A DNA stretch of 28,503 nucleotides, from assembly GCA_050950285.1 (NCBI GenBank), contig JBMNHG010000008.1, forward strand, positions 806,001-834,503, in the 5' to 3' direction. Made by a program: the position numbers and the translations under genes. Position 1 is the stretch's first letter, and each line of letters opens with the position of its first letter. The notes beneath the pieces are model-generated. The model made no database searches. It was not told the origin of the DNA and saw nothing but the letters and a program-made list of their open reading frames with translations. This DNA is from Kiritimatiellia bacterium. Its GTDB lineage: Bacteria > Verrucomicrobiota > Kiritimatiellia > RFP12 > JBMNHG01. This document shows positions 1 through 25,821 of this stretch, one piece after another.

Positions 1-2
1 GC

Positions 3-3000: not shown

Positions 3001-3062
3001 GCACGGACACGGTGGGCCGCGCCTTCGCGACCGTGAAGACGGTCCGCGCCTGCTCCCCGGAC
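3..3062 (+). CDS. N-terminal part of a giant Rhs/YD-repeat toxin (5' end outside window); contains bacterial TSP3-like Ca-binding repeats and a Cys-rich segment
   Basis: Frame is open from the window start with strong GC3 codon bias. It has DxDxDG/GTDP repeats (DHDGDGLSTCDEVMVHGTDPRLPDTDLDG...DTDGDGLVDG, ~520-760), a CxxCxxxCxxxxC cluster (~1920-1985) and YD-like motifs (YQAWDDEGREILR). Codon bias moves to frame +1 at ~3060 (TCC CCG GAC C GCC GCC TTC GAC), i.e. one extra base. Confidence 0.8.
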
Positions 3063-3063
3063 C

Positions 3064-6000
3064 GCCGCCTTCGACGACCCCGGCAACGCCGTCTCGACCG
3101 CCACCCGCTTCGACGCCGACGCCCCCGGCATCCCGCTGCTCCTGCGCGGCCGCCCGCTCGAATCCACCGACGAGGACGGCGTGACCACGACCTACGACTA
3201 CGCCCTCGGCGACTACGACCCCGCCACCCGCACCTTCGCCCCCGGCGGTTCCGGAACCGCGCTCCGCACGATCGCCCAACGCTGGTATCAGTCCAATCCG
3301 TCCGATACGTCCGACCTGACCATCCAGGACGCCGCGCACGGCACGACGCTCTACTCCGCCACCCTCCTTCACGCCACCGGCGCCACCCTCGACTGGCAGG
3401 CGCACACCTACGACGACAGGAACCGCCTCCGTTCCACGCTCTACTCCGACGGCTCCATCTCCACCAACGCCTACTCCTGCTGCCGCCTGCTCTGGACGCA
3501 GGATCGCGACGGCTTCAAGACTCTCCGCTCCGCCGAAACCGGCACAGACCACTTGCGATACGCCATGCTCGACGTGTCGTTTCCAGAGCTCCCGCAAAAC
3601 GAAGGCGGTCCTTCCGGCTACTACTTCGCCGTGCCGGGTGCCTATTCATATGCCCGCACCTACGACTTCCGGGCGACGGAGCACAGTTTCGATGCGATGG
3701 GCCGGCGCATCCGCACCCGTGAACTCGCGACAAACCCCGATCGCTCGCAAGACATCGCGACGCTTCGCAAAACCAGCTATGGATGGGAAGCGTCGGAAAC
3801 CACCAGCTATCCCCATGGCATATCCGACTTCCAAGTCCACACCGACGCGCGGGGACTCGTCACCCAAACCGCGTTCACCCAAACCCCCGCTGAAACCATC
3901 CAAACAGTGGACACCTTCGACGGCTCCGCGCTTCTGATGCGCACCACCTCGCGCACCATGCGCGGCGGCGGTTCCACCACCCGCCGGGAATGGGACGGCG
4001 AATGGACGGAAGCAGCCAGCAAAACCACGTTCGCTCCGGACGGGCGGCGAATCGAAATCGCCACCCTTGCCACGTCCGACGCCCCCGTGGTCACAAACAG
4101 CGTGGTGGAATACGACTTCCTCGGGCGCATCGCCGCTTCCGAAACGCCGCTCTCCCGCACGGAATACGCCTACCACGGCAGTTCGCGCCGCATCGCGTCG
4201 GAAACGGAAGTCCGCTCCGGTCGCGTCACGACGCCCCTCTACGACGAACTCGGCGACGCCATCGGCAGCGTGGCCGACGGCGTGGCGTCGATGTCGCTCG
4301 CCACCTACGAACTGCGCTCCAACGTCTGGTGGCGCGTCGCGACCTCCTTCCTGACGGCCGACGGCCGGACCAACGGGCTTTCCGTGTCCCGCACGCGCCT
4401 GACGGGGCTTTCCAACGCCCTGCGCTCCTGCGTCGAAACCGAGGCCGACGGCGCGACCACGCGCGTCGCCACGTCGTTCGACCCGGTCGCCAAGGTGTCC
4501 ACCGACACCCTCGAACGCACCGGCATGGCGACCACGACGCGCAAGCGCAAGTTCGGGCGGGAGATCGAGGCGACGGACGCCGACGGCGTCACCCGCTACA
4601 ACTACTTCGACCCCTACGGTCGCGTCTACCTCACGCGGGAGTTCACGGGCGAACGCCTCCACTGGCGCACCCTCGCCATGCGCGACAGCGTCGGCGACGT
4701 CTACGCCTCGGCCCGCTTCATCGGCGGCACCCCGCACTGGAACAACGTCGCCCGGTTCAACGGCTTCGACTCGCGCGGCAACCTCGTCGCCTCCACCAAT
4801 GAAATGGGGTACGTCACGCATTCGCTCTTCGACTCCGCCGGACGCCTCGCCGCGCGCTTCGGCGCGGCCTACCCCGTGGCCTACGGCTACGACGCGACGG
4901 GACGCCTGAAGTCCCTCTTCACCACCCGCGACGGCGCAACGTGGGACGTCACGCAGTGGAACTACGACCCCGCCACGGGGCTGGTCACCAACAAGGTCTA
5001 TGCCGACGGCTCCACGCTTGCGCATGGCTGGACGCCCGACGGCCTGCCGGAGCGCACCACCTGGGCGCGCGGCGCATGGCGTCATGTCGCGTACAACGAC
5101 CGGCGGCTTCCCGCCGCCGTCTCGCACTCCGACCCCGGCACGCCGGGCCATGAATTGTCCTACGACGCCTTCGGGCGGCTCGTCGCCGTAGCCGACGCCG
5201 CCGGACGCCGCCACGGCTACGCCTACGGCGCTTCCGCCGCCTCGCCGACGAACGAGACCGCCGTCGCGGACTCCGCCACGAACGCCGTCGCCCGAGTCCT
5301 CGACGCCAACGGCCACCCGGTTTCGACGACCTTGCGCGTCAACGACGCACCGCGAGGCGGGGTGTGGCATGCCTATGCGGACTCGGGCAGGCTGGCGCAG
5401 GTCGCCGCCACCAACGCCCAGGGGCGCGGGCTTGTGGCCGCCTACACCAACTTTGCCGGGCGCTCATTTGGTCATTCGGTCGAACTGCCCTCCGGCGCGG
5501 TCTTCACGCGGACGCTCGCGCGCGACGCCTACCGCCCGAACCGCGTCACGTCCATTGTCCATGCGTTCGACGGCGTGGAGGTCAGCCGATACGCGCACAC
5601 GTTCGATGCGCTTGACCGTCTTTCCGCCCGCAACGCCGACGCCTTCGGCTACAACGTCCGTTCCGAAATCGTGTCCGCCACCGTCGCATCCAACGAATAC
5701 GCCTATGCCTACGATTACATAGGGAACCATACAACCGCCTCGGTCAACTCGGATACGACAACCTACACGGCGAACAATCTCAACCAATACACCCAGGTTT
5801 CTGTGTCTTCTGTGCCTTCTGTGGACAATCCAATCTATGACCTCGACGGAAACATGCTGACCAATGGTGTTTGGTCTTACACGTGGGACTGCGAGAATCG
5901 GCTTGTTTCCGTCTTTTCAAACAACGTCTGTGTTGTTTCCAACGCCTACGACTACCTTTCCCGCCGCGTCCTGAAGGCCACGCCCGAGGCGGTTCGCGCC

Positions 6001-7248
6001 TTCGTCTACGACGGCTGGAACTTGATTCACGAAACCGTGACGGCAGGCAACGGCGACGTGTCGGAAATCCAGTATTTCTGGGGGCCTGACCTCTCCGGCA
6101 CGCTCCAAGGCGCGGGCGGCGTCGGCGGCTTGCTGGCCGTTTCCATCAACGGGCAGTTCTACCTGCCCTGCGTTGACAACAACGGCAACATCACCGCCTA
6201 TGTTGGAGAAACTGGCTCTGTCGTGGCAGAGTATGTCTATGACGCCTATGGAGGCGCCATTGCCCAAACCGGAAGCATGGCAGATGCCTTCCGCCATCGT
6301 TTCAGCACAAAATACTACGACGTAGAAACGGGGCTTTACTACTACGGACGCCGGTTCTACTCGCCAACGCTCCACCGCTGGCTCAACCGTGATCCGATCC
6401 AAGAACAAGGAGGGGCGAATCTGTATGCGTTTTGCAGAAATGATGGAGTGAACGCCGTGGATTTGCTGGGGCTTGCCTTGTATGCCTTTGATGGAACCTG
6501 GAATGACAAGGACAAAATGAAGCGTCCGACCAATGTCGCCAAGCTATATGAAGCTTACCAGAATCCAAGCAAAGTATACATGAAAGGAATTGGAACAGCC
6601 TCCTTGACAAGGGTGATCGGCGGCATAACGGGCGCTGGTGGTAAAAGCCGAGTTCATGCTATGTATCGTAGGTTTGTGAAATTTTACAATACACCTGATT
6701 CAACTGGCGAAAATCAAAAAATTGATGTCATCGGCTTCAGTCGTGGCGCAGCGCTTGCGCGCGATTTCGTGAACTACATCAACGAGCAAGGCGGCGTGCC
6801 CAGAACGACGAAAAACGGCAAGGAAATTGTTTGCCCCGTGAAGATTCGCTTCCTGGGTCTTTTTGACACGGTGGCCTCCTTTGGAATACCCGGAAACGAC
6901 ATAAATTTCGGATACGATCTCTCCATCCCCGGCAATGTGGAAAACGTCCGCCATGCGATTGCCCAAGATGAATATCGCGGCATGTTCCCCCTCTCGCCCG
7001 TTTTGGATCCGGACGGGACCGGTGTCGATCCAAGAATCGTTGAACGTCCCTTCCGGGGCTCGCACTCTGATGTCGGCGGAGGATATGAAGTTGGCGACCG
7101 GTCGAATTTCGCCCTGAATTGGATGTATCACGAGGCCATCCGAGTCGGCGTGCCCTTTGGGCCGCTCAGTCCCGAAGACGTTGGCGCAAGCGATCCGGTC
7201 ATTCACGACACCGGAGGCACGGGGCCTCGGGACATCTATTATCCATAA
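3064..7248 (+). CDS. C-terminal part of the same Rhs toxin: YD repeats, Rhs core and DUF2235 (Tle1-like phospholipase) toxin tip
   Basis: Many YD/YxYD repeats. The Rhs-associated core is RFSTKYYDVETGLYYYGRRFYSPTLHRWLNRDPI...NLYAF...VDLLGL. After 6474 come FDGTWN, TNV, GIGT, IGFSRGAALAR, FLGLFDTV, HAIAQDE and GSHSDVGGG motifs typical of DUF2235 alpha/beta hydrolases. Continues the upstream ORF across a +1 frameshift at ~3058-3063. Confidence 0.9.
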   Translation, partial: AAFDDPGNAVSTATRFDADAPGIPLLLRGRPLESTDEDGVTTTYDYALGDYDPATRTFAPGGSGTALRTIAQRWYQSNPSDTSDLTIQDAAHGTTLYSATLLHATGATLDWQAHTYDDRNRLRSTLYSDGSISTNAYSCCRLLWTQDRDGFKTLRSAETGTDHLRYAMLDVSFPELPQNEGGPSGYYFAVPGAYSYARTYDFRATEHSFDAMGRRIRTRELATNPDRSQDIATLRKTSYGWEASETTSYPHGISDFQVHTDARGLVTQTAFTQTPAETIQTVDTFDGSALLMRTTSRTMRGGGSTTRREWDGEWTEAASKTTFAPDGRRIEIATLATSDAPVVTNSVVEYDFLGRIAASETPLSRTEYAYHGSSRRIASETEVRSGRVTTPLYDELGDAIGSVADGVASMSLATYELRSNVWWRVATSFLTADGRTNGLSVSRTRLTGLSNALRSCVETEADGATTRVATSFDPVAKVSTDTLERTGMATTTRKRKFGREIEATDADGVTRYNYFDPYGRVYLTREFTGERLHWRTLAMRDSVGDVYASARFIGGTPHWNNVARFNGFDSRGNLVASTNEMGYVTHSLFDSAGRLAARFGAAYPVAYGYDATGRLKSLFTTRDGATWDVTQWNYDPATGLVTNKVYADGSTLAHGWTPDGLPERTTWARGAWRHVAYNDRRLPAAVSHSDPGTPGHELSYDAFGRLVAVADAAGRRHGYAYGASAASPTNETAVADSATNAVARVLDANGHPVSTTLRVNDAPRGGVWHAYADSGRLAQVAATNAQGRGLVAAYTNFAGRSFGHSVELPSGAVFTRTLARDAYRPNRVTSIVHAFDGVEVSRYAHTFDALDRLSARNADAFGYNVRSEIVSATVASNEYAYAYDYIGNHTTASVNSDTTTYTANNLNQYTQVSVSSVPSVDNPIYDLDGNMLTNGVWSYTWDCENRLVSVFSNNVCVVSNAYDYLSRRVLKATPEAVRAFVYDGWNLIHETVTAGNGDVSEIQYFWGPDLSGTLQGAGGVGGLLAVSINGQFYLPCVDNNGNITAYVGETGSVVAEYVYDAYGGAIAQTGSMADAFRHRFSTKYYDVETGLYYYGRRFYSPTLHRWLNRDPIQEQGGANLYAFCRNDGVNAVDLLGLALYAFDGTWNDKDKMKRPTNVAKLYEAYQNPSKVYMKGIGTASLTRVIGGITGAGGKSRVHAMYRRFVKFYNTPDSTGENQKIDVIGFSRGAALARDFVNYINEQGGVPRTTKNGKEIVCPVKIRFLGLFDTVASFGIPGNDINFGYDLSIPGNVENVRHAIAQDEYRGMFPLSPVLDPDGTGVDPRIVERPFRGSHSDVGGGYEVGDRSNFALNWMYHEAIRVGVPFGPLSPEDVGASDPVIHDTGGTGPRDIYYP

Positions 7249-7271
7249 GGATCAGCAAACGAGGAGATGCC

Positions 7272-7667
7272 ATGAAGAAAAAGCCAATCCGTTTTTTTCC
7301 AGCAGCAACGATTTCGATTATGATGTTGGCGCTTGGGGGATGCATGACACAGGACTATGCGGTCGGTATAAGAAACAAAACCGGAAACATCATCTACAAA
7401 ACCCATGTGTCATACGATGGATTTCAGTCGGTTGGAGGCACTCTAATAGCAGGAGGAACATCTGTGCATCTTTTTCCAGAAGTCCCCATACCCAAGGTTG
7501 CACAAGTCGAGTGGCAAACAGAAGACGGTGTCTTTCACCGGCAGAATGTCGAGGTTAAAAAAAACATGCCAAGAGGTTTTAAAGGAGATTTGATGTTTGA
7601 AATCACGGACGGGAATGTTGTCCTTCTTTTTGAAGAGTACTATGAAATGCCTTCGGGTTTCAGATGA
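7272..7667 (+). CDS. Lipoprotein, probable cognate immunity protein of the DUF2235 tip (Tli1/DUF3304-like)
   Basis: GAGGAG RBS at 7261-7266 and ATG at 7272. Basic N-terminus, hydrophobic stretch and lipobox LGGC. Lies 23 nt after the toxin stop and is low GC. The N-x-T...GG...P...V-x-W pattern resembles DUF3304 by eye only. Confidence 0.75.
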   Translation: MKKKPIRFFPAATISIMMLALGGCMTQDYAVGIRNKTGNIIYKTHVSYDGFQSVGGTLIAGGTSVHLFPEVPIPKVAQVEWQTEDGVFHRQNVEVKKNMPRGFKGDLMFEITDGNVVLLFEEYYEMPSGFR

Positions 7668-7732: not shown

Positions 7733-8449
7733 ATGAATTGTTACAAACGACAATACTGGATGATAGCAGATTTCGAGGCACTCGACAGGGCACCCAAAGA
7801 CCCTTTGGACCTTGCCCATAGGAAACGCCTGGAAAACATACAGAACCAAGGTTGGCGCGGATATCTGAAGCAAAAGCTTGATCGCGCAAGTTCGGGGAAG
7901 GCGTATCGGTTTGAGTTCTCGGGGAATTATCCAGCTTCCGATGATCCCGGGAACATCCGCCACGACGGCTATCCGGGAGACAAAGCGGGGAAGACTTATG
8001 AAAGAATTCAACGAGGTCAGATTGTCTGTAAGGAAGACGACATCTATATCTTGTTGATAGGGATGAACGATGCGCTCAACCTTGGTGTAGATCTTGCAAA
8101 AGGCAAAGTGGACATCAATCCAACTTTCAGCGCCATGACTGGCATTGCCACGTCAATTCGTGAGGACGATCCCGCGCTGTTTCTCTGGGGGAAAATCCCC
8201 TACATTACCGATTTGGCAAAAGACAGAAATCCAAAATACATCCCTACGAATGTCAATCTTCCCATCAAATACATCAATCAGCATGTCGGCAGCGAAGCGT
8301 CGTTTTTTGGGGCGACCGTCTTCGACTTGCAAAACCTGTTCATTGACAATCCTTCGTTTACCGACGACGGCTTTCATTTCAGCGACGCAGGAAATCGACA
8401 TGTGGCGTCTCTCCTGTTTGAGATGATTCAAAAAAAAATTAACAAGTAA
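7733..8449 (+). pseudogene. SGNH/GDSL hydrolase-like ORF lacking block I; probable orphan toxin tip fragment
   Basis: Block II-like RHDGYPG, block III LLIGMNDA and block V DDGFHFSDAG are present. No GDS nucleophile motif is in frame (in-frame TGA at 7700-7702). Low GC and lies between two lipoprotein genes. Confidence 0.6.
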
Positions 8450-8469: not shown

Positions 8470-9297
8470 ATGAAAACTAAATGCTTGGCTTTGTGCCTCC
8501 TCCTCTTTCTTCTTGTGAGCTGTTCCAGTGAAGACAATGATAGCAATGCAGTTCAGTTTAATGCAGCGGATCTGGCCGACTACAAAAAGTTGGGGATTAC
8601 AAATGGATTTCTTCGCTTTAAAGACAGAAACTTAGGGTTGTTCGGCTATGCGAATACCAATGGCAATGTTATGTTGAAGCCCCAGTATTATGTTTGCAGC
8701 CTAACATTTTTTCAAGGATATGCTTGGGTGGATTTAGGTTATGAAGGCGACAGCATTCCCGATTACAACGATCTGTCCCTTGGCGACTTTATTGACACGA
8801 ACGGCGTCAGACTGGTCGGGAAAAAGCTACATGCCACTATTCCAAATCCCTGGATGTGGGGGGTGAATTACGAACCGCAGTTTGTCAATGGGCTTGCGTT
8901 CGTGTCGGCCGATCCCTCCGACTTTCCAGAAATCGCCATGCCGACGAATGTGAATCAAGAAGTAAGGAAGGAGCTTGAAAGCAAAAGCGCCAGATATGTC
9001 TATTGCATCGATACGAATGGAAATCCAGTCAGCGCCCACCATGTCCACGGGCCTTTTTATACAACTGCTACATGGTGCAACGGCCCCAAGTTCCGTTGGG
9101 GAAGTCGGCTGACATGGGTCGATCTGTTGAACGGGGACAGGGGAATACTGCTTTGGGACGGAACCGTGCCCCTGACGACTTCGGTCAAGGACTATGAGGA
9201 GCTTTTGGAGATCGAACGCCGATTCGTCGAAGAGAACTATGGAACAAACGGCGTCGTGAAATTCACAGGCCAGGCATGGGTGTACTTCTATTATTGA
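8470..9297 (+). CDS. WG-repeat lipoprotein, probable immunity protein
   Basis: AGGAG RBS at ~8459-8463 and signal peptide with lipobox LVSC. Repeats FGYANTNGNVMLKPQY, FIDTNG, YCIDTNG with F-x-x-G-x-A-x-V resemble WG beta-repeats. Directly follows the SGNH ORF. Confidence 0.75.
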   Translation: MKTKCLALCLLLFLLVSCSSEDNDSNAVQFNAADLADYKKLGITNGFLRFKDRNLGLFGYANTNGNVMLKPQYYVCSLTFFQGYAWVDLGYEGDSIPDYNDLSLGDFIDTNGVRLVGKKLHATIPNPWMWGVNYEPQFVNGLAFVSADPSDFPEIAMPTNVNQEVRKELESKSARYVYCIDTNGNPVSAHHVHGPFYTTATWCNGPKFRWGSRLTWVDLLNGDRGILLWDGTVPLTTSVKDYEELLEIERRFVEENYGTNGVVKFTGQAWVYFYY

Positions 9298-9319
9298 CCG
9301 TTGAAAGTGGGAGGTTGAA

Positions 9320-11489
9320 ATGACGCAGTTGTCCATCGTTTTAGTTGTTCATGAATTTGGTGTGCAACGCAACCGGATGGCCACCCCGCATTTCATGGAC
9401 GCCCTCGGCAGGGAGACCAACACCGTCGTGACGGCGGTCGGCGAGCCCGGAAGCGCCGCCACCCCCGATTGCGGGACGCTCGGCTTCACGGCTTCCGAAA
9501 CGACGGCGTACCCCCACGGCACCGGCGACCACGTCGTCCATGTCGACCGGCGCGGGGTTCGCACGGTCACGACGCGCACGTCGCACGCCGACCGCGAGGA
9601 GAGCGTCACCCTGACGTTCTCGCCGGCGAACCCCGACGTTTGCGTCGTGGCGAGCACGAACATCGCCTACCGGAACGGGCGTTCCATCGCCATCCGAAGC
9701 TGGGACGGCGGCTGGACGCGCGAAACCTCGTGGAGCGACTACGCCGCCGACGGAACACGGCGCGCCTTCTCCGTCACCGAGGCGTCCGATTCACCGAACG
9801 CGGTCACGAATCAAATTTCGCACAGCGATTTCCTCGGGCGGACGGTGGCGACGCTGACGCCCGGCGCCGCAGGCGCGTGGCTCGTCACCTCGAACGCCTA
9901 CGACGGCGCGACCTCGCGCCTGGTTCGCACCGAAACCACCGGACAGCCTGCGACGACCTACCTCTACGACGAGCGCGGCGAGATGGCGGCGACGGTTCAA
10001 AGCGGCGTCGAGACCGCGTCGGAAACCCGCTACGAGAACATCGCCGGGGCATGGTGGCGGGTGGACGTCCGCAGCACGTCGCGCGAGGGCGTCACCAACG
10101 CCGTCGCGACGACCCGCCGGCAGTTGACGGGGCTTTCCAACGCCCTGCGGAGCCGCACGGTGAACACCGGCCCGAACGGCTCGACGACGACGGAATCGGG
10201 CAGCTACAACCCGCAGACTTGCGAACTGACGATGGTTCGCGCCACCGATGCGGCGACGCCATCCACCACCGTCTCGAAGTTCGGGCGTCCAATTCGTCGC
10301 GAATCGCTGCGGGAAACCGTTTACAACTACTTCGACCCGCTCGGGCGCGTTGCATACTCGGAAATGCGCGACCCTGAAACGGGCGTCTATTCCCATTTCC
10401 GCTGGTCGGGACTCGACGAGTCCGACAACGAGACCCACTACGGCATTTATTATTACGACGACGATCTGCACGTCACTGGATCGAGAACCTTCGACGCCTT
10501 CGGCCGCGAAACGTCCCGCACCGACGCCCTCGGCAACACCGTCACCAACACCTACGACGCCCTCGGGCGTCCGGTTGCCGCCACCGGCGCGGCCTACCCC
10601 GTGGCCTACGGGTACGACGCCGCCGGCCGCACGACCGCCCTCGCCACCGCCCGCGGCAACGCCGCCGGCTTCGCCGACCTCGCCGTCCAGCTTGCCGGAG
10701 GCGCGTCCCTCGCGTCCCTTGCGTCCCCTGCGTCCCTCGATCTCACCGCCTGGAACTACGATCATGCCACGGGACTGCTCACCAACAAGGTCTACGCCGA
10801 CGGATCAGCAGTGTCCTACGCGTACACCCCCGACGGCAGGCTTGCCGCCCGCGCCTGGGCGCGCGGACTCGCCACCGCCTACGCCTACAACCCCGACGGC
10901 TTGCTCACCGCCACCACCTACAGCGACAACACGCCGGACATCGTGCTGACATACGACCTCTTCCAGCGCCCTGCTTCCGCCTCCAACGCCGTCGCGCGAT
11001 ACGCCTACCAGAACAGCCACCTCGGCACCGCCACCAACGAGACGGCCACGGTCGGCGGCGACACCGCGACCCTGGCCCGCACCATGGACAACCGCCACCG
11101 CCTGGCGGAACTGCGCGTCGAGGATGCGCCACCCGTTCAATACGGCTACGATGCCGAGAACCGGCACTCCGCCGTCTCCAACACCGCCTTCCGCGCCACC
11201 TACGCCTACACCTCCGACGGCTGGGATGCGGGGTATTCGGTGGCCTTGACGAATGGCGTCGTACTTGCCCGCAACCTGACCCGCGACCCCTACCGCCGCA
11301 GTCTGGTAAAAGCCATCACCAACAGCGCCAGCGGCGTGCCGTACAATCCGCTGGCCTACACCTACGACCTCCTCGACCGCGTCACGTCACGAAACGCCGA
11401 CACCTTCGACTACAACGCCAGAAGCGAAGTCACATCCGCCATCATCCAGCCCGCCCACACCAACCGCTACGCCTTCGACAACATAGGCA
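9320..11489 (+). CDS. Orphan Rhs scaffold (N-terminally truncated), 5' exon of group II intron copy 1
   Basis: Colinear with Rhs1 from ~3673 onward (ATxHxxDAxGR, LTGLSNALRS, YNYFDP, GAAYPVAYGYDA, WNYDxATGLxTNKVYADGS). GGAGG precedes ATG 9320. Ends YAFDNIG-A immediately before the GTGCG intron start. Confidence 0.85.
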
Positions 11490-13422
11490 GTGCGCCAAGC
11501 GAAGCTCGGCGCTTCTTGCGGGGTGGAAGTCCCCGCCGAGTAAGGACCAGCCATCCACTCGTACCGAGTGTTGGCACTATGGAAGAGGAGTCGAATCCGA
11601 ATGAAGTAGTGTAAGCGTACACAGGGAACTCCGCAGGCCGCAGGGAGGATGCACCCTCCCGAAGCGGTTCAGCCCCGTTAATTGATCATGCGCAGGGCGA
11701 CATGTTTGCCGACATGGAAGCCAGCAACAAGGACGCGCAACCGGCTTGCGTCCGGTGACTGCGCCGGGGTCTACGGCGCGCGGCATGCGGAGAGAGAAGC
11801 GAACGGGAACTTGGGAGACCCGCCGCCGTCCGCGTCCGCGAGGGCGCGGTAGCGGCCGCCGAGCCGGAAGGGAAGGCGGCGCGACGCGGCGGCGGGAGTC
11901 AGACCGCCCCATAGTACTCCGGGACGGGCGAGCCGGTCACACGGGGAAGGGGGCGGCGGGGCTGCGAAGCCCGCAAAGGAAACAGGAAAGATGGACACGA
12001 CAGGCTGTCAAACACTGCAAACCTCACTGCGGGGAATAGCGGATCGGGCGCGACGCGACCCGAAGGCGCGATTCCGCGACGTGTACAGGCTGCTCAACGA
12101 GGCGAACCTGCGCGAGTGCTTCCGGGCGTTGCGCAGGGACGCCGCGCCGGGGATTGACCGGGTGACGTTCGACGACTACGAACGCGACCTCGACGCCAAC
12201 CTCGCGGCGCTGGTCGAGCGGCTCAAGCACAAGCGGTACCACGCCCGACTGGTGCGCAGGGTGAACATTCCGAAGGGGGGCGGGGAACTGCGTCCCCTCG
12301 GAATCCCTGTGCTGGAGGACAAACTTCTGCAAATGGCCGTGGCGAAGGTGCTCACGGCGATCTACGAAGAGGACTTCCTGCCGGCGAGCCGGGGCTACCG
12401 TCCCGGCGGCGACGCCCGCGAGGCCAGCCGCGAATGGGCGGCGAGGCTCGGCGGGGGGAGCTATGCGTGGGTGGTCGATGCGGACATCAAGGGCTTCTTC
12501 GAGCACGTCGATCACGACTGGATGCTCAGGATGCTGGAGCTTCGCATCGACGACAAGCCGTTTCTGCGGCTGGTGCGCAAATGGCTCAAGGCGGGGGGTG
12601 CTCGAAACGGACGGACGGGTGCTGCATCCGACGGAGGGGACGCCCCAAGGCGGGGTGGTCTCGCCGGTGCTGGCGAACGTCTACCTGCACTACGCGCTGG
12701 ATCTCTGGTTCGACCGCGTGGTCAGGAGGACGACGCCGGGCCGCTGCGCGATGCTGCGCTACGCCGACGACTTCGTGGTCGCCTTCGAGCGGCGCGAGGA
12801 CGCGGAACGCTTCCTTGGGGAACTGCCCGGGCGACTGGGCAAGTTCGGCCTGGAGCTGTCGGGGGAGAAGACGCGGCTGGTGCGCTTCGAGCGGGGCAAC
12901 CCGTCGGGCGACAACGGCGGCTTCGACTTCCTGGGGTTCCAGTACCACTGGGAGCGTACGCGAAACGGACGCTGGAAGGTGCAGCGCCGGACGGCTCCGA
13001 GCCGTCTCCGGCGGTCGGTGGAACGCTTCGCCGAGTGGATCAAGGCCAACCGGGGCGAACGCCTGCCCGTTCTCATGGAACGGCTGGGGCGCAAGCTCGC
13101 GGGGTACTGGCAGTACTACGGCGTGACGGGCAACGGGCGCAGCCTGTGCAAGTTCTGGAGGCAGGTGGTGGCTGGGCTCTACAAGTGGCTCAACCGCAGA
13201 AGCCAGAAGCGGGGCTTGACCTGGGTCCGTCTCAATGCGATCCTCAAGCGCCACGGGGTGCCGGGACCGCGGATCACCGAGAGCGGGCAGATGCTGTTTT
13301 CCTTCATGGGGGCGCGTTGAAGACCGAGTGCAAAGCGAGCAGTCCCGAAGAGCCCGGTGCGGGAATTCCGCACGCCGGGATCCGTGCGGGGGGCGCCCGG
13401 CAACGGGCGTCCCTACCGCGAT
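11490..13422 (+). mobile_element. Group II intron copy 1 (IIB-like, probably bacterial class E), 1933 nt
   Basis: 5' GTGCG boundary. Domain V GAGCCCGGTGCGGGAATTCCGCACGCCGGGATC at 13350-13382 (AGC triad). Domain VI has a bulged A at 13415 and the intron ends in AT. Internal RT ORF; near-identical to 17032-18963. Confidence 0.95.
11991..13320 (+). pseudogene. ltrA: Group II intron reverse transcriptase/maturase with +1 frameshift
   Basis: RT0-RT7 motifs split across two frames (IPKxxG..RPLGIP, DADIKGFF | GTPQGGVVSP, YADD). G6 run at 12593-12598 versus G5 in intact copy 3. Confidence 0.88.
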
Positions 13423-14366
13423 ACATCATAGCATACGCTGATGAGCAAGGCGCAATCGTGGCCGACTATCTTTATGACGCCTTTGGCCGTACCATAGAGG
13501 CAACGGGTCTGCTTGCGGACACCTTCCGTCACCGCTTCAGCACGAAGTATTATGATACCGAGACAGGACTGTATTACTACGGCTACCGTTTCTACGTACC
13601 CGAACTGATGAGGTGGATCAACAGGGATCCGATTGAGGAAGGTGATGGATGGAATTTATATGAGGTTGTTAGAAACAATCTTGTTAACCACAACGATGTT
13701 TTGGGACTTTGGAAAAAAGGGAAAACTATTGATGGCGGCAAGCGCAGAGTTTACATTCGAGAAAGCGAGGACTCATTTGAAAGTTTGGCCTGTCTTTTGA
13801 AGCTAGACCTAAATGAGGTTCACAAATGGGCAAAGATTCATAACGACAGCAGTAGCCCCGATGGTAAAATTCCATGCGAAGTTTCCGTGCCAAACGAGAT
13901 TGTTGTGTTTACGTCAAAACCATCATGGTATGACAGCTCATTGTCGGTAGTTGCCAACTTTCGTAGTAAAGCAGAAAAACTATCTAAACACTACGAGGCG
14001 AATGGCTATAAAGTTATCTTCAGAAAACACAATGACAATGTTGCAGTATTCAAGTCGCTTTGGAAATCGCCGGATATATACGGGTTTGTTTATGCGGGGC
14101 ATGGAGCATACCCGTTAGGGTTACGAATTAACAGTAGTGCTGATGGAGCCGTCTTTCCGTGTGAAGTGTCTCCGCCTCATAAGTTAGCAATTGGCTTGTT
14201 CTATGCCTGCTACTCAGATAATGAAGGTACAGGCGAATTCGACACATTGGGATCCTGGAAAGATCATGTTGCGATAGAAGCCGGTGCCGAGTACGTGGGG
14301 TATCATGGCTTGGCTTGGTGGTGGAGTGATCCTGTGAATAGCGAGGGCACCAATGACAACAATTAA
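13423..14366 (+). CDS. 3' exon: Rhs core plus C-terminal toxin tip with clan CD (caspase/gingipain-fold) His-Cys motif
   Basis: Reads (N)IIAYADEQG...YDAFG...RFSTKYYDTETGLYYYGYRFY...RWINRDPI...NDVLGL, then a low-GC tip (13710-14366) with FVYAGHG and FYACYS. In frame with exon 9320-11489 after intron removal (A|AC = Asn). Confidence 0.85.
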
Positions 14367-14688
14367 AAGAATAGCTTTCTGGGTTTTCTTAATTGTTGTT
14401 TTCTATGTGCTAGTCACCCAAATTGCAACTGTAATTTTTCAACTCCATTATAATCGAACTGCAACCGTTCGTGCTCGTCAAATTGCAAAGGAGCAAATAC
14501 AATGTGAACGTGAGCGAGTAACCAAAGCAATTGCTGCAATCGAATCGAATTACTTGCATGACGCTATGAGTACATTTACAAACAGCCAAATACTAGACTA
14601 CGCCACCAATACGTTCTGCACGGTTACCAACGAAACGGCGACGGTTGGTGGCAATATCGCCACTCTGCCCCGTGACAATGCTCTGTAA
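14353..14688 (+). CDS. Membrane-anchored probable immunity protein, apparently truncated and fused to Rhs sequence
   Basis: Overlaps the toxin stop and has an N-terminal hydrophobic helix (IAFWVFLIVVFYVLV). The last ~30 aa (TVTNETATVGGNIATL) match Rhs scaffold sequence at ~11025-11075. Confidence 0.6.
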   Translation: MTTIKRIAFWVFLIVVFYVLVTQIATVIFQLHYNRTATVRARQIAKEQIQCERERVTKAIAAIESNYLHDAMSTFTNSQILDYATNTFCTVTNETATVGGNIATLPRDNAL

Positions 14689-15092
14689 CATGGACAACCG
14701 CCATCGGATGAAAACACTGCGCAGCGGCGGTGCCGCTCCCGTCTATTACGGCTACGACTCGGAAAGCCGTCTGTCCACCGTCTCGAATGATGCCTTTTCG
14801 GCAAGCTACGCATATACTGATGACGCTTGGGATGCAGGGTATGACATAATGCTGTACAATGGCGTTACGCTCACTTGTGACCTTACCTGTGACCGCTACC
14901 GCCGCAGTCTGGTAAAGGCCATTACAAACAGCGTTAATAGCATAGCGACAGCTCCATTAGCCTACGCCTACGACAAACTGAACCGCGTCACCAGTCGTAA
15001 CAATGACACTTTTGACTATAATGCCAGAAGCGAGGTCACTGCGGCGGACATTGGAGCCACCATCAGCCGGTATGCCTACGACAACATTGGTA
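14599..15092 (+). pseudogene. Decayed Rhs scaffold fragment, 5' exon of intron copy 2
   Basis: Colinear with 11000-11489 (MDNRHR, YGYDxExR, YRRSLVKAITNS, TFDYNARSEVT, RYAYDNIG). A 13-nt frameshifting insertion sits at 14674-14686. Confidence 0.85.
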
Positions 15093-17031
15093 GTGCGCCA
15101 AGCGAAGCTCGGCGCTTCTTGCGGGGTGGAAGTCTCCGCCGAGCAAGGACCAGCCATCCAGCTCGTACCGAGTGTCGGCACTATGGAAGAGGAGACGAAA
15201 CCGAATGAAGCAGTGCAAGCGTACACAGGGAACTCCGCAGGCCGCAGGGAGGATGCACCCCCTCCGAAGCGGTTCAGCCCCGTCAACACCGATCATGCGC
15301 AGGGCGACATGGTTGCCGACATGGAAGCCAGCAACAAGGACGCGCAACCGGCTTGCGTCCGGTGACTGCGCCGGGGTCTCACGGCGCGCGGCATGCGGAG
15401 AGAGAAGCGAACGGGAACTTGGGAGGCCCGCCGCCGTCCGCGTCCGCTGGGGGCGCGGTAGCGGCCGCCGAGCCGGAAGGGAAGGCGGCGCGACGCGGCG
15501 GCGGGAGTCAGACCGCCCCATGGTACTCCGAGACGGGCGAGCCGGTCACACGGGGAAGGGGGCGGCGGGGCTGCGAAGCCCGCAAAGGGAACAGAGAAGA
15601 TGGACGCGACAGGCTGTCAAACACTGCAAACCTCACTGCGGGGAACAGCGGATCGGGCGCGACGCGACCCGAAGGCGCGATTCCGCGACGTGTACAGGCT
15701 GCTCGACGAGGCGAACCTGCGCGAGTGCTTCCGGGCGCTCCGCAGGGACGCCGCGCCGGGGATCGACCGGGTGACGTTCGACGACTACGAACGCGACCTC
15801 GACGCCAACCTCGCCGCGCTGGTCGAGCGGCTGAAGCGCAAGCGGCACCACGCCCGACTCGTGCGCAGGGTGAACATTCCGAAGGGGGGCGGGAAGCTGC
15901 GTCCCCTCGGAATCCCCGCGCTGGAGGACAAACTTCTGCAAATGGCCGTGGCGAAGGTGCTTACGGCTATCTACGAAGAGGACTTCCTGCCGGCGAGCCG
16001 GGGCTACCGTCCCGGCGGCGACGCCCGCGAGGCCAGCCGCGAATGGGCGGCGAGGCTCGGCGGGGGGAGCTATGCGTGGGTGGTCGATGCGGACGTCAAG
16101 GGCTTCTTCGAGCACGTCGATCACGACTGGATGCTCAGGATGCTGGAGCTTCGCATCGACGACAAGCCGTTCCTGCGGCTGGTGCGCAAGTGGCTCAAGG
16201 CGGGGGTGCTCGAAACGGACGGACGGGTCGCTCCATCCGACGGAAGGGACGCCCCAGGGCGGGGTGGTCTCGCCGGTGCTCGCGAACGTCTACCTGCACT
16301 ACGCGCTCGACCTCTGGTTCGACCGCGTGGTCAGGAGGACGACGCCGGGCCGATGCGTGATGCTGCGCTACGCCGACGACTTCGTGGTCGCCTTCGAGCG
16401 GCGCGAGGACGCGGAACGCTTCCTTGGGGAACTGCCCGGGCGACTCGGCAAGTTCGGCCTGGAGCTGTCGGGGGAGAAGACGCGGCTGGTGCGCTTCGAG
16501 CGGGGCAACCCGTCGGGCGACAACGGCGGCTTCGACTTCCTGGGGTTCCAGTACCACTGGGAGCGTACGCGAAACGGACGCTGGAAGGTGCAGCGCCGGA
16601 CGGCTCCGAGCCGTCTCCGGCGGTCGGTGGAACGCTTCGCCGAGTGGATCAAGGCCAACCGGGGCGAACGCCTGCCCGTTCTCATGGAACGGCTGGGGCG
16701 CAAGCTCGCGGGGTACTGGCAATATTACGGCGTATCGGGCAACGGACGCAGCCTGTGCAAGTTCTGGAGGCAGGTGGTGGCTGGGCTCTACAAGTGGCTC
16801 AACCGCAGAAGCCAGAAGCGGGGCTTGACCTGGGTCCGTCTCAATGCGATCCTCAAGCGCCACGGGGTGCCGGGACCGCGGATCACCGAGAGCGGGCAGA
16901 TGCTGTTTTCCTTCATGGGCGCGCGTTGAAGACCGAGTGCAAAGCGAGCAGTCCCGAAGAGCCCGGTGCGGGAATTCCGCACGCCGGGATCCGTGCGGGG
17001 GGCGCCCGGCAACGGGCGTCCCTACCGCGAT
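15093..17031 (+). mobile_element. Group II intron copy 2 (divergent 5' half), 1939 nt
   Basis: GTGCG start after TACGACAACATTGGTA. Same domain V/VI and CTACCGCGAT end as copies 1 and 3. Confidence 0.95.
15600..16929 (+). pseudogene. ltrA: Group II intron reverse transcriptase/maturase with +1 frameshift
   Basis: Same RT as copy 3 but with an extra base near 16229 (CGGGTCGCTC vs CGGGTGCTG). GTPQGG and YADD lie in the shifted frame. Confidence 0.88.
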
Positions 17032-18963
17032 GTGCGCCAAGCGAAGCTCGGCGCTTCTTGCGGGGTGGAAGTCCCCGCCGAGTAAGGACCAGCCATCCAC
17101 TCGTACCGAGTGTTGGCACTATGGAAGAGGAGTCGAATCCGAATGAAGTAGTGTAAGCGTACACAGGGAACTTCGCAGGCCGCAGGGAGGATGCACCCTC
17201 CCGAAGCGGTTCAGCCCCGTTAATTGATCATGCGCAGGGCGACATGTTTGCCTACATGGAAGCCAGCAACAAGAACGCGCAACTGGCTTGCGTCCGGTGA
17301 CTGCGCCGGGGTCTACGGCGCGCGGCATGCGGAGAGAGAAGCGAACGGGAACTTGGGAGACCCGCCGCCGTCCGCGTCCGCGAGGGCGCGGTAGCGGCCG
17401 CCGAGCCGGAAGGGAAGGCGGCGCGACGCGGCGGCGGGAGTCAGACCGCCCCATAGTACTCCGGGACGGGCGAGCCGATCACACGGGGAAGGGGGCGGCG
17501 GGGCTGCGAAGCCCGCAAAGGGAACAGGAAAGATGGACACGACAGGCTGTCAAACACTGCAAACCTCACTGCGGGGAATAGCGGATCGGGCGCGACGCGA
17601 CCCGAAGGCGCGATTCCGCGACGTGTACAGGCTGCTCAACGAGGCGAACCTGCGCGAATGCTTCCGGGCGCTCCGCAAGGACGCCGCGCCGGGGGTTGAC
17701 CGGGTGACGTTCGACGACTACGAACGCGACCTCGACGCCAACCTCGCGGCGCTGGTCGAGCGGCTCAAGCACAAGCGGTACCACGCCCGACTGGTGCGCA
17801 GGGTGAACATTCCGAAGGGGGGCGGGAAACTGCGTCCCCTCGGAATCCCTGCGCTGGAGGACAAACTTCTGCAAATGGCCGTGGCGAAGGTGCTCACGGC
17901 GATCTACGAAGAGGACTTCCTGCCGGCGAGCCGGGGCTACCGTCCCGGCGGCGACGCCCGCGAGGCCAGCCGCGAATGGGCGGCGAGGCTCGGCGGGGGG
18001 AGCTATGCGTGGGTGGTCGATGCGGACATCAAGGGCTTCTTCGAGCACGTCGATCACGACTGGATGCTCAGGATGCTGGAGCTTCGCATCGACGACAAGC
18101 CGTTTCTGCGGCTGGTGCGCAAATGGCTCAAGGCGGGGGTGCTCGAAACGGACGGACGGGTGCTGCATCCGACGGAGGGGACGCCCCAAGGCGGGGTGGT
18201 CTCGCCGGTGCTGGCGAACGTCTACCTGCACTACGCGCTGGATCTCTGGTTCGACCGCGTGGTCAGGAGGACGACGTCGGGCCGCTGTGTGATGCTGCGC
18301 TACGCCGACGACTTCGTGGTCGCCTTCGAGCGGCGCGAGGACGCGGAACGCTTCCTTGGGGAACTGCCCGGGCGACTGGGCAAGTTCGGCCTGGAGCTGT
18401 CGGGGGAGAAGACGCGGCTGGTGCGCTTCGAGCGGGGCAACCCGTCGGGCGACAACGGCGGCTTCGACTTCCTGGGGTTCCAGTACCACTGGGAGCGTAC
18501 GCGAAACGGACGCTGGAAGGTGCAGCGCCGGACGGCTCCGAGCCGTCTCCGGCGGTCGGTGGAACGCTTCGCCGAGTGGATCAAGGCCAACCGGGGCGAA
18601 CGCCTGCCCGTTCTCATGGAACGGCTGGGGCGCAAGCTCGCGGGGTACTGGCAGTACTACGGCGTGACGGGCAACGGGCGCAGCCTGTGCAAGTTCTGGA
18701 GGCAGGTGGTGGCTGGGCTCTACAAGTGGCTCAACCGCAGAAGCCAGAAGCGGGGCTTGACCTGGGTCCGTCTCAATGCGATCCTCAAGCGCCACGGGGT
18801 GCCGGGACCGCGGATCACCGAGAGCGGGCAGATGCTGTTTTCCTTCATGGGGGCGCGTTGAAGACCGAGTGCAAAGCGAGCAGTCCCGAAGAGCCCGGTG
18901 CGGGAATTCCGCACGCCGGGATCCGTGCGGGGGGCGCCCGGCAACGGGCGTCCCTACCGCGAT
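17032..18963 (+). mobile_element. Group II intron copy 3, 1932 nt, intact ORF, directly abutting copy 2
   Basis: Junction ...CTACCGCGAT|GTGCGCCAAG at 17031/17032. Domain V/VI at ~18891-18963. Confidence 0.95.
17533..18861 (+). CDS. ltrA: Group II intron reverse transcriptase/maturase (442 aa, no endonuclease domain)
   Basis: AAPGVD (RT0), RRVNIPKGGGKLRPLGIP, DADIKGFFEHVDH, GTPQGGVVSPVLANVYLH, RYADDF, FDFLGF, and thumb domain GYWQYY...WLNRRS. No HNH domain at the C-terminus. Confidence 0.96.
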   Translation: MDTTGCQTLQTSLRGIADRARRDPKARFRDVYRLLNEANLRECFRALRKDAAPGVDRVTFDDYERDLDANLAALVERLKHKRYHARLVRRVNIPKGGGKLRPLGIPALEDKLLQMAVAKVLTAIYEEDFLPASRGYRPGGDAREASREWAARLGGGSYAWVVDADIKGFFEHVDHDWMLRMLELRIDDKPFLRLVRKWLKAGVLETDGRVLHPTEGTPQGGVVSPVLANVYLHYALDLWFDRVVRRTTSGRCVMLRYADDFVVAFERREDAERFLGELPGRLGKFGLELSGEKTRLVRFERGNPSGDNGGFDFLGFQYHWERTRNGRWKVQRRTAPSRLRRSVERFAEWIKANRGERLPVLMERLGRKLAGYWQYYGVTGNGRSLCKFWRQVVAGLYKWLNRRSQKRGLTWVRLNAILKRHGVPGPRITESGQMLFSFMGAR

Positions 18964-20193: not shown

Positions 20194-23100
20194 TTATGGC
20201 GGTGACGATGAAATACGGAAGAATTGTCTGGGCTGCCCTGCGGGCATGGCGACGGAGGCTTCATACAGGAAAACCCCATTCTCTTCACCAGTTTCCTGGA
20301 TCGTTGCATCCGCAACGCGCCAAACCGGATCGTTGAGGTCGTCTTTCGTGTACACAAGATAGGGGATTCCGCGCTCTCCCCAGAAAGAGAACTTGAATGT
20401 AATGCCGTCGGCGGATGTGGAAACCATATCCGGCGCAACGACCGGCATGGGGACATCGCCAATCCAAACGATATCATCAACCCATGCTGCGTCCGTGCTA
20501 CTGGCCACCGACCCGTTCTTGACGTACTCCCATCGCAATACGTTGGTAACACCTGCGTTCTCAACCCTGTTCGATACCCATGTCCATGGGGTCTTGGTGC
20601 CGGAGATCGAGGAAACCAGCACCCCATTTACAAGAAACCGCAGGTGATCGTTAACTTCGCTGACAGTTTTCCACCAGAATGTGATGGAACCGCTGCCATA
20701 TACCTCTGTTTCGAAAGCTGTAAAACCGTTGTCGGGCACTACACCGGAGCCCCCCAGCTTGACAGCCGCATTCCCCGAGGGCGCACCCGCCGCTGTATCG
20801 GCGGAAATGCCGTTCTCGATGCCGCTTTGGGTGTAGGTGCGCCCATAGGAACCGGAGACACGCGCGATCGAATCGCGGTAGGTGGCGGTCAGGGTGCTGG
20901 CCGCTGTCGGCATGGTCAGTGTCGTTGTGCTAGACGAGGCGTCCTCAAGGAATGCCGCTGCGTCGCCGGTCCAGGCCGCGAATTCCATGTAGAGCGGATC
21001 GGGAGCGGCCTTTACCGTCACGACGGAACCCTCGGGGTGCCAGCCGCTGCCGGATCCATTATTGACCGTCAACGGAACAGAATATGTCGCCGTGATGGAG
21101 ATTGGAACGCCGAGCATCGTCACCGTCGTCGTCGCAGAGGCGGCGGACACGACGAAAGCCACATCGCCCGTCCAGCGGTAGAACCGCTTGCCGGGGATAT
21201 CCGGTGCCGAGACAACGACCTGGCTGTTGTAGGGATACTCGCCGCTGCCATTGCCGCCCAGGACGGTCAGGGGATAGAGGATAGGCTTGTAGGTCGCGGC
21301 CAAAACCACGTTGGTAGGCGGCATGACCAGCACCGTGCTGGCGGAGAGGGTGTCCGCCACGCCGTTCGTGTCTCCCGTCCAGCGGTCGAACTCGTAGTAC
21401 GGCGCAGATGCATCGGCGGAGATCGCCACGGGGCTGCCGTTCGTGTGCCAGCCGTCGCCGGTGCCTGCCTCGACGGTCAGGGAGAACTTAGGAGTCCAGG
21501 TAATCGCGTCAACCCACCCGGCATCATCGCCGACGTACTCGCCAATTGGATCCTTCTCATACTCCCACCTGAAGGTATGCGCCGTTTCGGCTTCGCCGAA
21601 CACCTCGACCGAAACGAGAATCCAGCCAGTTCCTGTTCCGGAAATCTGGTTGGTGGCGCCCGCCCCGACTTCGTGGAAACTCAAAACATCGTAATCCAAT
21701 TCGCTGGAGACCTTCCAGTCGAAGCCCAGAAAGCCCGGGCCTGTGACCGACCATTCGATGCCGGCCATTTCCCCGTCATCAAGCAGCCCGATACCGCCGA
21801 GTTTCATGGACGAGCCGCCATCCCCGGAGTGCTCGTCAGACGGATTCACTGCGGAACTAATTCCAACTGGAACAATGGTTGCGAAGCTGGCGTGAATGGT
21901 CTGGTTGCTGGTCACGCTTACAAAGCTGTACTCGCTTACTGAGCCGACGGAAACGCCGTTTACGAGCACATCAATATGGTAGAAATTCGGATCGGGAAGG
22001 ATCATGAAATTGGTGCTGGCACCATGGGCAACCGTTATCGTGCCGGCTGGCATGATACTGCCGCCCGGGCTGGATGTGGCTGTGATTTCATGCACCCAGG
22101 GCGCCGTTGGACAGTCGCAATAGTAGGCATCCCAGCCGGTGGTGCCGAGGATGTGATAAACGGTGGTCGGGCAGGAATCAAACACCCAGTAACCGTGTGT
22201 TGGGGCGTTGCCAGCGAAAAAGACGCTGGTCAGGGAGGTGCAGTTGCGGAACGCGTAGTTGCCGATGGTGGTGACGCTGCCGGGGATCGTCACGCTGGTC
22301 AGGGAGGTGCAGCCGGAGAACGCGTCGTAGCCGATGGTTGTAATGCTGTCGGGGATCGTTACGTCGGCCAGTGAGGTGCAGTTCCAGAACGCCGAGGAAC
22401 CGATATTGGTGACGCTATTGGGGATCGTCACGCCGGCCAGTGAGGTGCAGTAGTAGAACGCGCAGTCGCCGATGGTGGTGACGCTGTCGGGGATCGTCAC
22501 GCTGGCCATGGAGGTGCAGCGGGAGAACGCGTAATCGCTGATGTTGGTGACGCCGCTGCAGATCGCCACGCTGGTCAGGGATGTGCAGCCAGAGAACGCA
22601 GAGCCGCCGATGGCAGTGACGCTGTCGGGGATCGTGTAGGCACCGGTCTTACCTCTTGGGCAAAAAATGAGGGTGGTTTGCTCCTTGTTGAACAACACCC
22701 CTTCCAGACTGCTGTAATTGGGGTTTGCGGAAGAGACGGTGATGTTGGTCAGGGATGTGCAACCGTAGAACGCCCCGTCGCCGATGGTGGTGACGCTATC
22801 GGGGAGCGTCACGCTGCTCAGGGCGGTACAGTTGCAGAACGCACTGTCGCCGATGGTGGTGACGTTGTCGGGAATCGTGTAGGCGCCGATCCTGCCGCCG
22901 GGACATTGGATTAGGATGGTTTGCTCCTTGTTGAACAACACCCCTTCAAGACTGCTGTAATTGGGGTTTGCGGAAGCGACGGTGATGTTGGTCAGGGAGA
23001 TGCAACTGGAGAACGCAGAGGAACCGATGTTGGTGACGCTGTCGGGGAGCGTCACGCTGCTCAGGGCGGTACAGTTGCAGAACGCACTGTCGCCGATGGT

Positions 23101-25741: not shown

Positions 25742-25821
25742 CGCCCCTTCAGGGCTAGTCGTTCATTTGCCTATTCCCCAGGGCGTTGCCCTGGGCTGGT
25801 ATATTTCGCCCCTTCAGGGCT
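25742..25821. repeat. REP-like palindromic cluster
   Basis: CGCCCCTTCAGGGCT occurs twice, flanking the hairpin CCCAGGGCGTTGCCCTGGG. Confidence 0.7.

Follow-up and report, generated by a model that had tools for sequence, protein, structure and literature searches.

How does a group II intron come to lie between two exons that do not belong together? The question is raised by an Rhs gene, here called Rhs2, in a 28,503-nt stretch of DNA (the window) from a Kiritimatiellia bacterium (assembly GCA_050950285.1, contig JBMNHG010000008.1, positions 806,001 to 834,503). Polymorphic toxins, Rhs proteins among them, gain diversity through the exchange of C-terminal tips, which has so far been explained by recombination between short segments of the conserved core. 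In Rhs2, an intron copy named I1 separates a 5′ exon that ends at one repeat of the Rhs core from a 3′ exon that begins at another repeat and carries the toxin tip. The arrangement is probably the work of a selfish intron specialised on a codon motif of Rhs genes, whose copies recombine with one another and in doing so scramble toxin cassettes in frame.

The assembly (4.05 Mb in 12 contigs, of metagenome type) contains dozens of Rhs genes and orphan arrays, and the window forms the end of contig C8. Three intron copies, I1, I2 and I3, lie inside the window; those on other contigs are named C2a, C2b, C3a, C3b, C6a, C7a and C12a (C2, C3, C5–C8, C10 and C12 being contig labels). The features of the window are listed in Table 1.

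The two exons of Rhs2 and the intron between them

The 5′ exon of Rhs2 ends with YAFDNIG plus a single A, a position equivalent to YDYIG-N in Rhs1, the intron-free Rhs gene located upstream (Asn codon at 5725, residue 849). The 3′ exon starts with AC-ATC-ATA-GCA-TAC, which is equivalent to DNNG-N-ITAY (Asn codon at 6187, residue 1003 of Rhs1). These two positions, named sites A and B, are 462 nt (154 codons) apart in Rhs1; the flanks of I1 are therefore not the two halves of one target. A tblastn search against Rhs1 placed the 5′ exon at residues 165–849 and the 3′ exon at residues 1004–1098. Each cut lies between the first and second base of an Asn codon (phase 1), and splicing in silico gives an open reading frame (ORF) of 723 + 1 + 313 = 1037 aa without a stop codon. 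In all these points the first-pass annotation, which had been made from the sequence of the window only, was correct. It had also raised the possibility that some intron-free Rhs homologues naturally lack the 154-aa segment. The set of paralogs examined speaks otherwise: five intron-free paralogs, about 90% identical to the 5′ exon of Rhs2, keep 454–478 nt between A and the sequence following B (here B′; a prime denotes the continuation of a site). Throughout the genome, empty A sites continue into A′ (NALW...) in 24 of 24 cases and empty B sites into B′ (NI.AY...) in 34 of 34, so that 58 of 58 have their own continuation. The in silico spliced Rhs2 thus lacks 154 aa of shell that all the intron-free paralogs keep.

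YD repeats (PF05593, TIGR01643) were found in Rhs1 and in the 5′ exon of Rhs2, and Rhs shells in the PDB were matched. Since Rhs2 starts at the equivalent of Rhs1 residue 165, lacking some 146 aa of the N-terminus, it is, on its translation, best called a long orphan cassette and not a complete Rhs. The Rhs-associated core domain TIGR03696 (79.1 bits) lies wholly inside the 3′ exon, at residues 17–95; site B is therefore located 17 codons before the Rhs exchange module. The tip that follows (tip 2) matched no Pfam or NCBIfam family, and no family was matched by the 111-aa ORF that is its candidate immunity gene. An Atlas match of tip 2 to DUF6345 (0.84) was a weak lead only, and the assignment was not retained.

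I1 runs from GTGCGCC (11490) to CGCGAT (13422). The same ends were found in all eight full copies of the intron in this genome, and they fit the 5′ GUGYG and 3′ AY of group II introns. The Rfam model RF02005 (domains 1–4) matched I1 at 11526–11779; its gathering score is 49, and it gave 105.6 bits for I1 and 103.3 and 96.9 bits for the two other copies in the window. The model for domains 5 and 6 (RF00029) aligned with I1 over its full length (1–77) at 36.2 bits, the gathering score being 40 (E = 5.8e-06 in a 191-nt search); the AGC triad, the 2-nt bulge and the bulged A are present in the alignment. The intron-encoded protein matched TIGR04416 (343.9 bits; cut-off 300) and RVT_1 (E = 1.8e-33), with a GIIM match just below its cut-off (21.3 bits; cut-off 23). 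No endonuclease domain was found in it with Pfam.

Among the eight full copies, the reverse transcriptase gene is intact in four, has its ATG changed to ACG in two and is frameshifted in two. The latter are I1, through one extra G, and I2, through a different one-base insertion. Contigs with and without the extra G of I1 both exist in metagenome runs X1 and X2. No stop codon interrupts the shifted reverse transcriptase frame of I1 before the end of the intron, and it continues in phase into the toxin exon, giving a 791-aa ORF (11991–14366), which is probably due to chance in GC-rich DNA.

Intron copies and their target sites in the genome

A blastn census of the genome identified, besides the eight full copies (1.9 kb, 97–99% identical), one copy truncated by the end of its contig (C12a), one with an internal deletion (C3b) and one fragment of 384 nt. 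The suggestion of the first-pass annotation that the other copies would favour Rhs genes was borne out: the eight full copies all lie in Rhs-like frames at Y-D-x-x-G/N (the slash marks the insertion point), in phase 1, and two partial copies do so too. The target motifs in the Rhs core are site A (YAFDNIG/N) and site B (FPFYDNNG/N); a further core site, D (YDLDG/N), occurs only as a 3′ flank. In Rhs1 all three are empty (A at 5725, D at 5851, B at 6187). A fourth motif, YDKKG/N, is occupied by C12a and empty at C3:239766; the co-occurrence of an empty and an occupied allele in one assembly hints, at the level of sequence, at recent mobility. C12, an 18-kb contig, repeats parts of C3:239766–259928 at 98–100% identity in rearranged form and carries its intron at C12:16979–18291, an indication that the population sampled includes structural variants of the Rhs arrays.

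Mismatched flanks are not confined to I1. Only three of the eight full copies have a cognate pair of flanks (C7a, A/A′; C3a and C2a, B/B′). The five remaining pairs are non-cognate: I1 (A/B′), C2b (A/D′), C6a (B/A′), I2 (A/I3) and I3 (I2/non-Rhs). Against this stand the 58 of 58 empty sites that are followed by their own continuation (Fisher p = 6e-6, a value calculated on paralogs that are not independent). The internally deleted C3b has B on one side and non-Rhs sequence on the other. An identical 45-nt 5′ flank is present in I1, C2b and C7a, followed in each by a different 3′ flank. Wherever the 5′ end of a carrier can be assessed, it belongs to a truncated or orphan cassette and never to a full-length Rhs gene; for C12a the assembly contains no 5′ flank. 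The 3′ exon of C6a is frameshifted and cut by an insertion sequence (IS), and the 5′ exon of C2a is cut by an IS; these products are clearly dead.

The cassettes downstream of the introns have homologs whose similarity begins close to the intron edge. Tip 2 and its candidate immunity gene have a copy on an intron-free orphan (C8:744043–742783), with homology starting about 11 nt past the intron; the 3′ exon is 88% identical to C8:744043–743105 and the immunity gene 80% identical to C8:743115–742783. Further, the segment 5849–7636 of Rhs1, which spans D′, tip 1 and the ORF after it, is 94% identical to C2:690202–691999, that is, to the 3′ side of C2b, from the last bases of the intron on. The 5′ exon of C2b, unlike its 3′ side, is of the A type of Rhs2. 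The flanks here show the feature by which DNA-level exon shuffling is defined (PMC7947834), namely exons that differ in origin and a homology that changes exactly at the intron. Candidate parental copies are present in the genome for A/A′ (C7a) and B/B′ (C3a, C2a), while no copy with a D 5′ flank was found.

The sequence that selects the 5′ exon, exon-binding site 1 (EBS1), was assigned to the loop CATG-TTTGCC(G/T)A-CATG (intron positions 218–223). The assignment rests on covariation of the loop with the 5′ flank in five lineages, among them four relatives of the intron (TGGGGT with GCCCCA, TGCCGA with TCGGTA, TAACAT with ATGTTA, and GGTAG with CTATT). The T variant of the loop, present in C2b, C7a and I3, pairs perfectly with TAGGCA of site A. 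The G variant, present in C3a, C6a, C2a, I2 and I1, pairs with CGGCA of site B. Within this genome the G variant follows site B and the T variant site A, except in I1. A second exon-binding site (EBS2) was sought in GTGTTG (intron 79–84), which can pair with exon CAACA; since it is conserved in relatives having unrelated flanks, it is not claimed as EBS2.

An alignment of the eight full copies has 125 columns with differences, and the pattern is visibly mosaic. Of 666 pairs formed by 37 informative sites, 294 fail the four-gamete test, and a PHI-like test with 5000 permutations showed less incompatibility between adjacent sites than in the permuted data (p = 0.005). At the markers between positions 226 and 641, I1 agrees with the B-site copies. 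It is thus a B-type intron lying behind an A-type exon, which argues for recombination between copies and not for fresh insertion of the best-fitting variant. Its marker pattern points to a crossover near the 5′ end of the intron, between an A-site and a B-site copy. C6a (B/A′) was considered as the simple reciprocal product and rejected, since it shares with I1 the same 5′ 640 nt and the G variant.

I2 and I3 form a head-to-tail tandem with zero bases between them (17031/17032; ...CGCGAT/GTGCGCC...). The A-type EBS1 of I3 cannot pair with the end of I2, and the 3′ flank of I3 is a non-Rhs TCCTCG repeat with which its EBS1 does not pair either; no uninterrupted copy of this site was found in the genome. 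This 3′ flank resembles the flank of a related intron in genome G034 (L016), and a 5′ flank reading TCGTCCTCGTCCTCG up to the insertion point is seen in runs X1 and X2.

Close relatives of the intron protein were detected in metagenome-assembled genomes (MAGs) of Lentisphaerota and Kiritimatiellia, and intron DNA was present in nine of 300 other genomes sampled from the order (E ≤ 1e-20). Rhs flanks were identified in four other genomes: G016 and G034 (B′), G113 (FDYDVFG/) and a Chitinophagales MAG (YYGYRY/YSP). In the last of these, which belongs to another phylum, the intron (contig L045, 1068–2990) is 70% identical in DNA and 63% in protein, has its own matching EBS1 loop and interrupts the Rhs gene inside YYGYRY/YSP...RW, the most conserved Rhs motif. 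Many other relatives of the intron lie outside Rhs genes.

Proposed recombination between copies and the alternatives to it

The mechanism proposed would start from a mobile group II intron lacking an endonuclease and targeting GAY-AAY-NNN-GGN-A/AY (D-N-x-G/N) in the YD repeats of Rhs. In this Lentisphaerota-type genome, with its dozens of Rhs genes and orphan cassettes, the string recurs both inside single genes and from one to another, and the intron accordingly occupies at least four non-equivalent repeats (A, D, B and YDKKG/N), always in one codon phase. The 1.9-kb copies, 97–99% identical and in one orientation per array, offer far better homology than the diverged Rhs cores. Homologous recombination between copies at different sites, by crossover or gene conversion, could then join non-matching exons. 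In the case of Rhs2, a site-B intron together with its B′–tip 2–immunity cassette would have been joined to a scaffold ending at A, by a crossover within the first ~226 nt of the intron, and 154 codons would have been skipped. Since the target itself fixes the codon phase, recombinant products would be in frame after splicing. In our reading the shuffling is a side effect of a selfish element that lives among many repeats; the intron would be a joint that works well although it arose by accident, and no evolved device.

Several observations weigh against this explanation, some of them concerning the intron and others the assembly. To begin with the intron, the crossover must fall in the first ~12% of its length, and the assembly contains no simple reciprocal product of I1, no gene with two introns and no D 5′ flank. 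Splicing of I1 is a prediction from its sequence; its domain 5–6 match remains below the Rfam gathering score and its own maturase is frameshifted. Three B-site copies (C6:16155–18086, C3:579713–580409 and C2:684460–686393) have an exon ending in GGAA, a mismatch to EBS1 at position -2, most empty B sites reading GGCA or GGGA. Finally, the exact I2–I3 tandem is not explained by a simple crossover. It may have arisen when an I2-type intron retrohomed into a site that was occupied already but whose exon side was still intact; the EBS1 of I2 pairs with TTGGTA by wobble, and the base preceding it could wobble-pair with the first G of the resident intron.

As to the assembly, wrong flanks may have been joined through the near-identical 1.9-kb repeats by the assembler or polisher, or strains may have been mixed, the copies being in reality all cognate. 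Chimeric joins and a strain mixture are possible, because the small contigs C5 and C12 are near-duplicates (95–100%) of other regions and because the assembly breaks at repeats: C12 stops within an intron copy, a multi-copy IS adjoins the end of the window, and C7a, C12a and the window itself are all close to contig ends. Swapping the 3′ halves of I1 (A/B′) and C6a (B/A′) would make both copies cognate. Further, neither a read nor an independent contig was found in which the A and B′ exons are connected through I1. Four metagenome runs (landfill, bioreactor, digester and biofilm; short Logan contigs) compared with positions 9300–14700 yielded none that bridges the intron, their loose contig ends showing only intron-free A/A′ junctions and intron copies of other organisms. 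Relatives of tip 2 (63–71%) are encoded on six metagenome contigs; these lack the intron and all lie on continuous cores, so the arrangement A–intron–B′ is repeated in none of the six. Nevertheless, an artefact would require four or more separate mis-joins, and C2b (A/D′) has no D-flanked partner with which its halves could have been swapped. That 4.05 Mb were assembled into 12 contigs, with many 2-kb repeats and an intron tandem resolved, implies that the reads exceeded the intron in length. Owing to differences at positions 143 and 788, the identical stretch shared by I1 and C6a is only ~640 nt long, and the extra G specific to I1 is present in contigs of two independent metagenomes. On this evidence we consider an assembly artefact unlikely, while giving it more weight than either of the two alternatives that follow.

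A second alternative is that the intron has been kept by selection as a joint between scaffold and toxin–immunity cassette, acting at the DNA level and possibly also at the RNA level, by trans-splicing of transcripts from different cassettes that carry the intron. The location of site B, 17 codons before the core domain, at a module boundary for tip exchange, is in keeping with this, as are the cassette homologies that end at intron edges, the EBS1 variants tuned to two different repeats, and the presence of the lineage in Rhs genes of four other genomes, one of them from another phylum. Intergenic trans-splicing by bacterial group II introns has moreover been shown experimentally (PMC7947834). 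However, no full-length, and so presumably expressed, Rhs gene has the intron, and several products are visibly broken (the frameshifts of C6a, the IS of C2a). Occupancy is low (A, four occupied and 24 empty; B, four and 34), many relatives lie outside Rhs genes, and a purely selfish element would also do well in a conserved gene family of many copies. Selection for such a joint therefore appears quite improbable to us. The same low probability is given to its widest form, in which the lineage would be a working joint of Rhs diversification that connects any scaffold to any downstream cassette, through DNA recombination and also, with the DNA left unchanged, through trans-splicing, so that silent orphan tips could be expressed combinatorially. 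The first-pass annotation had described the introns as portable, frame-preserving blocks that couple scaffolds to cassettes. The tie to an Rhs codon, the recurrent mismatch and the homology starting at the intron edge support part of that description; the notion of a selected system is not supported, the carriers with an assessable 5′ end being truncated or orphan.

Least probable of all, and very doubtful in our view, is that the deletion came first, slippage between the GACAAC-NNN-GGCAAC motifs of A and B having removed the 154 codons before an intron arrived at the hybrid site by homing: repeat proteins readily undergo deletions of this kind, and the hybrid, a valid-looking target, would keep the intron-binding site 1 and the A at +1 (five of six EBS1 pairs for the G variant, six of six for the T variant), but none of the 24 empty A sites in the genome is joined to B′, I1 has the EBS1 variant that mismatches its own exon although the matching one exists in the genome, the three different non-cognate pairs would need separate accidents, and the backward jump B/A′ is impossible by deletion.

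Two known systems come closest to this case. In lactococcal and enterococcal relaxase genes, both DNA-level exon shuffling between group II intron copies and RNA-level trans-splicing have been described, and in chimeric relaxase genes the homology shifts exactly at the Ll.LtrB site (LaRoche-Johnston, Bosan & Cousineau 2020, PMC7947834). As with Ll.LtrB and Ef.PcfG, near-identical introns reside here in related genes and the products are in frame and potentially spliceable. The relaxase introns all occupy one homologous position of orthologous genes, whereas those in Rhs occupy several non-equivalent repeats of one repeat protein, and recombination would here remove or duplicate blocks (154 or ~42 codons) besides swapping tips. 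The hosts differ too, being toxin–immunity cassette arrays with putative chimeras in place of relaxase genes.

The second is the exchange of Rhs tips in Salmonella, which takes place through 522 bp of rhs core of 95% identity (Koskiniemi et al. 2014, PMC3967940). The organisation is alike in that a main rhs gene is followed by orphan cassettes, each with a core fragment, a toxin and an immunity gene, from which a new tip is acquired by homologous recombination between direct repeats. In contrast to that 522-bp core, the best block of homology here is the 1.9-kb intron of 97–99% identity, with joints at its edges, and joints also occur between non-equivalent positions of the core; introns go unmentioned in PMC3967940. 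In the titles and abstract openings searched, no group II intron in Rhs YD repeats was found, nor intron copies at non-equivalent in-phase repeats giving block deletions or duplications together with tip exchange; older work on introns near Rhs elements of E. coli lies outside this search. A preprint surveying Rhs proteins contains no mention of the word intron. The principle of intron-mediated exon shuffling at the DNA level has already been published for relaxases (PMC7947834), while the Rhs case was not found in print.

Compared with recombination through a conserved core, the intron provides a longer and nearly identical block of homology that is predicted to be able to remove itself from the transcript. 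If long reads confirm the junctions, they would represent natural bacterial exon shuffling through introns inside a repeat protein, in which the scar would be hidden by splicing and the reading frame secured by the target motif. A further implication would be that a one-base adjustment of its exon-binding site allowed a group II intron to spread to another repeat within one gene family, and how selfish spread weighs against benefit to the host would become directly testable.

Other features of the window

Table 1. Coordinates of the features of the window
Feature	Positions	Strand	Basis or remark
Rhs1, full-length, intron-free, 1355 aa	3181–7248	+	Translation; PF09994 (E = 8.7e-36); RHS_repeat; TIGR03696 at aa 1020–1098
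ORF after Rhs1, candidate immunity gene moving with tip 1	7119–7667	+	Shared homology block; no Pfam family
Rhs2 5′ exon, N-truncated Rhs core ending at site A (...YAFDNIG + A)	9320–11489	+	Matches Rhs1 aa 165–849
Intron copy I1, 1933 nt	11490–13422	+	Alignment, blastn, flanks; markers of B type from intron position 226 on
EBS1 of I1, TGCCGA (G variant)	11707–11712	+	Pairs with CGGCA of site B; one mismatch to TAGGCA of its own exon
Reverse transcriptase/maturase of I1, frameshifted	11991–13320	+	One extra G in the G run 12593–12598
Domains 5 and 6 of I1, bulged A, terminal AU	13348–13422	+	RF00029 match; fold
Rhs2 3′ exon: start at B′, Rhs-associated core domain, tip 2	13423–14366	+	TIGR03696 at aa 17–95
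Candidate immunity gene of tip 2, 111 aa	14353–14688	+	80% copy beside second copy of tip 2; 3′ end overlaps next core fragment
Orphan Rhs core fragment ending at site A (YAYDNIG + A)	14596–15092 (about)	+	Same motif as end of Rhs2 5′ exon
Intron copy I2, 1939 nt, reverse transcriptase frameshifted	15093–17031	+	~97% identical to other copies; last base abuts I3
Intron copy I3, 1932 nt	17032–18963	+	EBS1 TGCCTA (A type) at 17249–17254; 3′ flank non-Rhs
Reverse transcriptase/maturase of I3, intact, 442 aa	17533–18861	+	TIGR04416, RVT_1

The C-terminal tip of Rhs1 is a Tle1-like phospholipase (PF09994). In the gap between Rhs1 and Rhs2 lie a GDSL-lipase-like ORF (7733–8449) and a WG-repeat ORF (8470–9297), which would be unusual immunity or accessory candidates for a phospholipase tip. 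The ~4-kb unit 5′ of Rhs1 (window positions 1–3566, including the start of Rhs1) has copies of 95–98% identity that precede other full-length Rhs genes on C5, C6 and C10. It contains a 1060-aa ORF (2–3184) without a Pfam family, which ends in GTGA and overlaps the start of Rhs1.

Downstream of the introns, the minus strand encodes a 1264-aa BspA-type leucine-rich-repeat protein with InlB B-repeat-like domains (20194–23988), the DNA of which has repeats with periods of 69 and 243 nt. A DDE transposase gene (26021–27763, minus strand) belongs to a ~2-kb element with at least ten copies at 96–99% identity, and the contig stops just past this element. The plus strand contains, at 25777–25821, an Acido-Lenti-1 small RNA motif (RF01687; 45.2 bits against a gathering score of 37).

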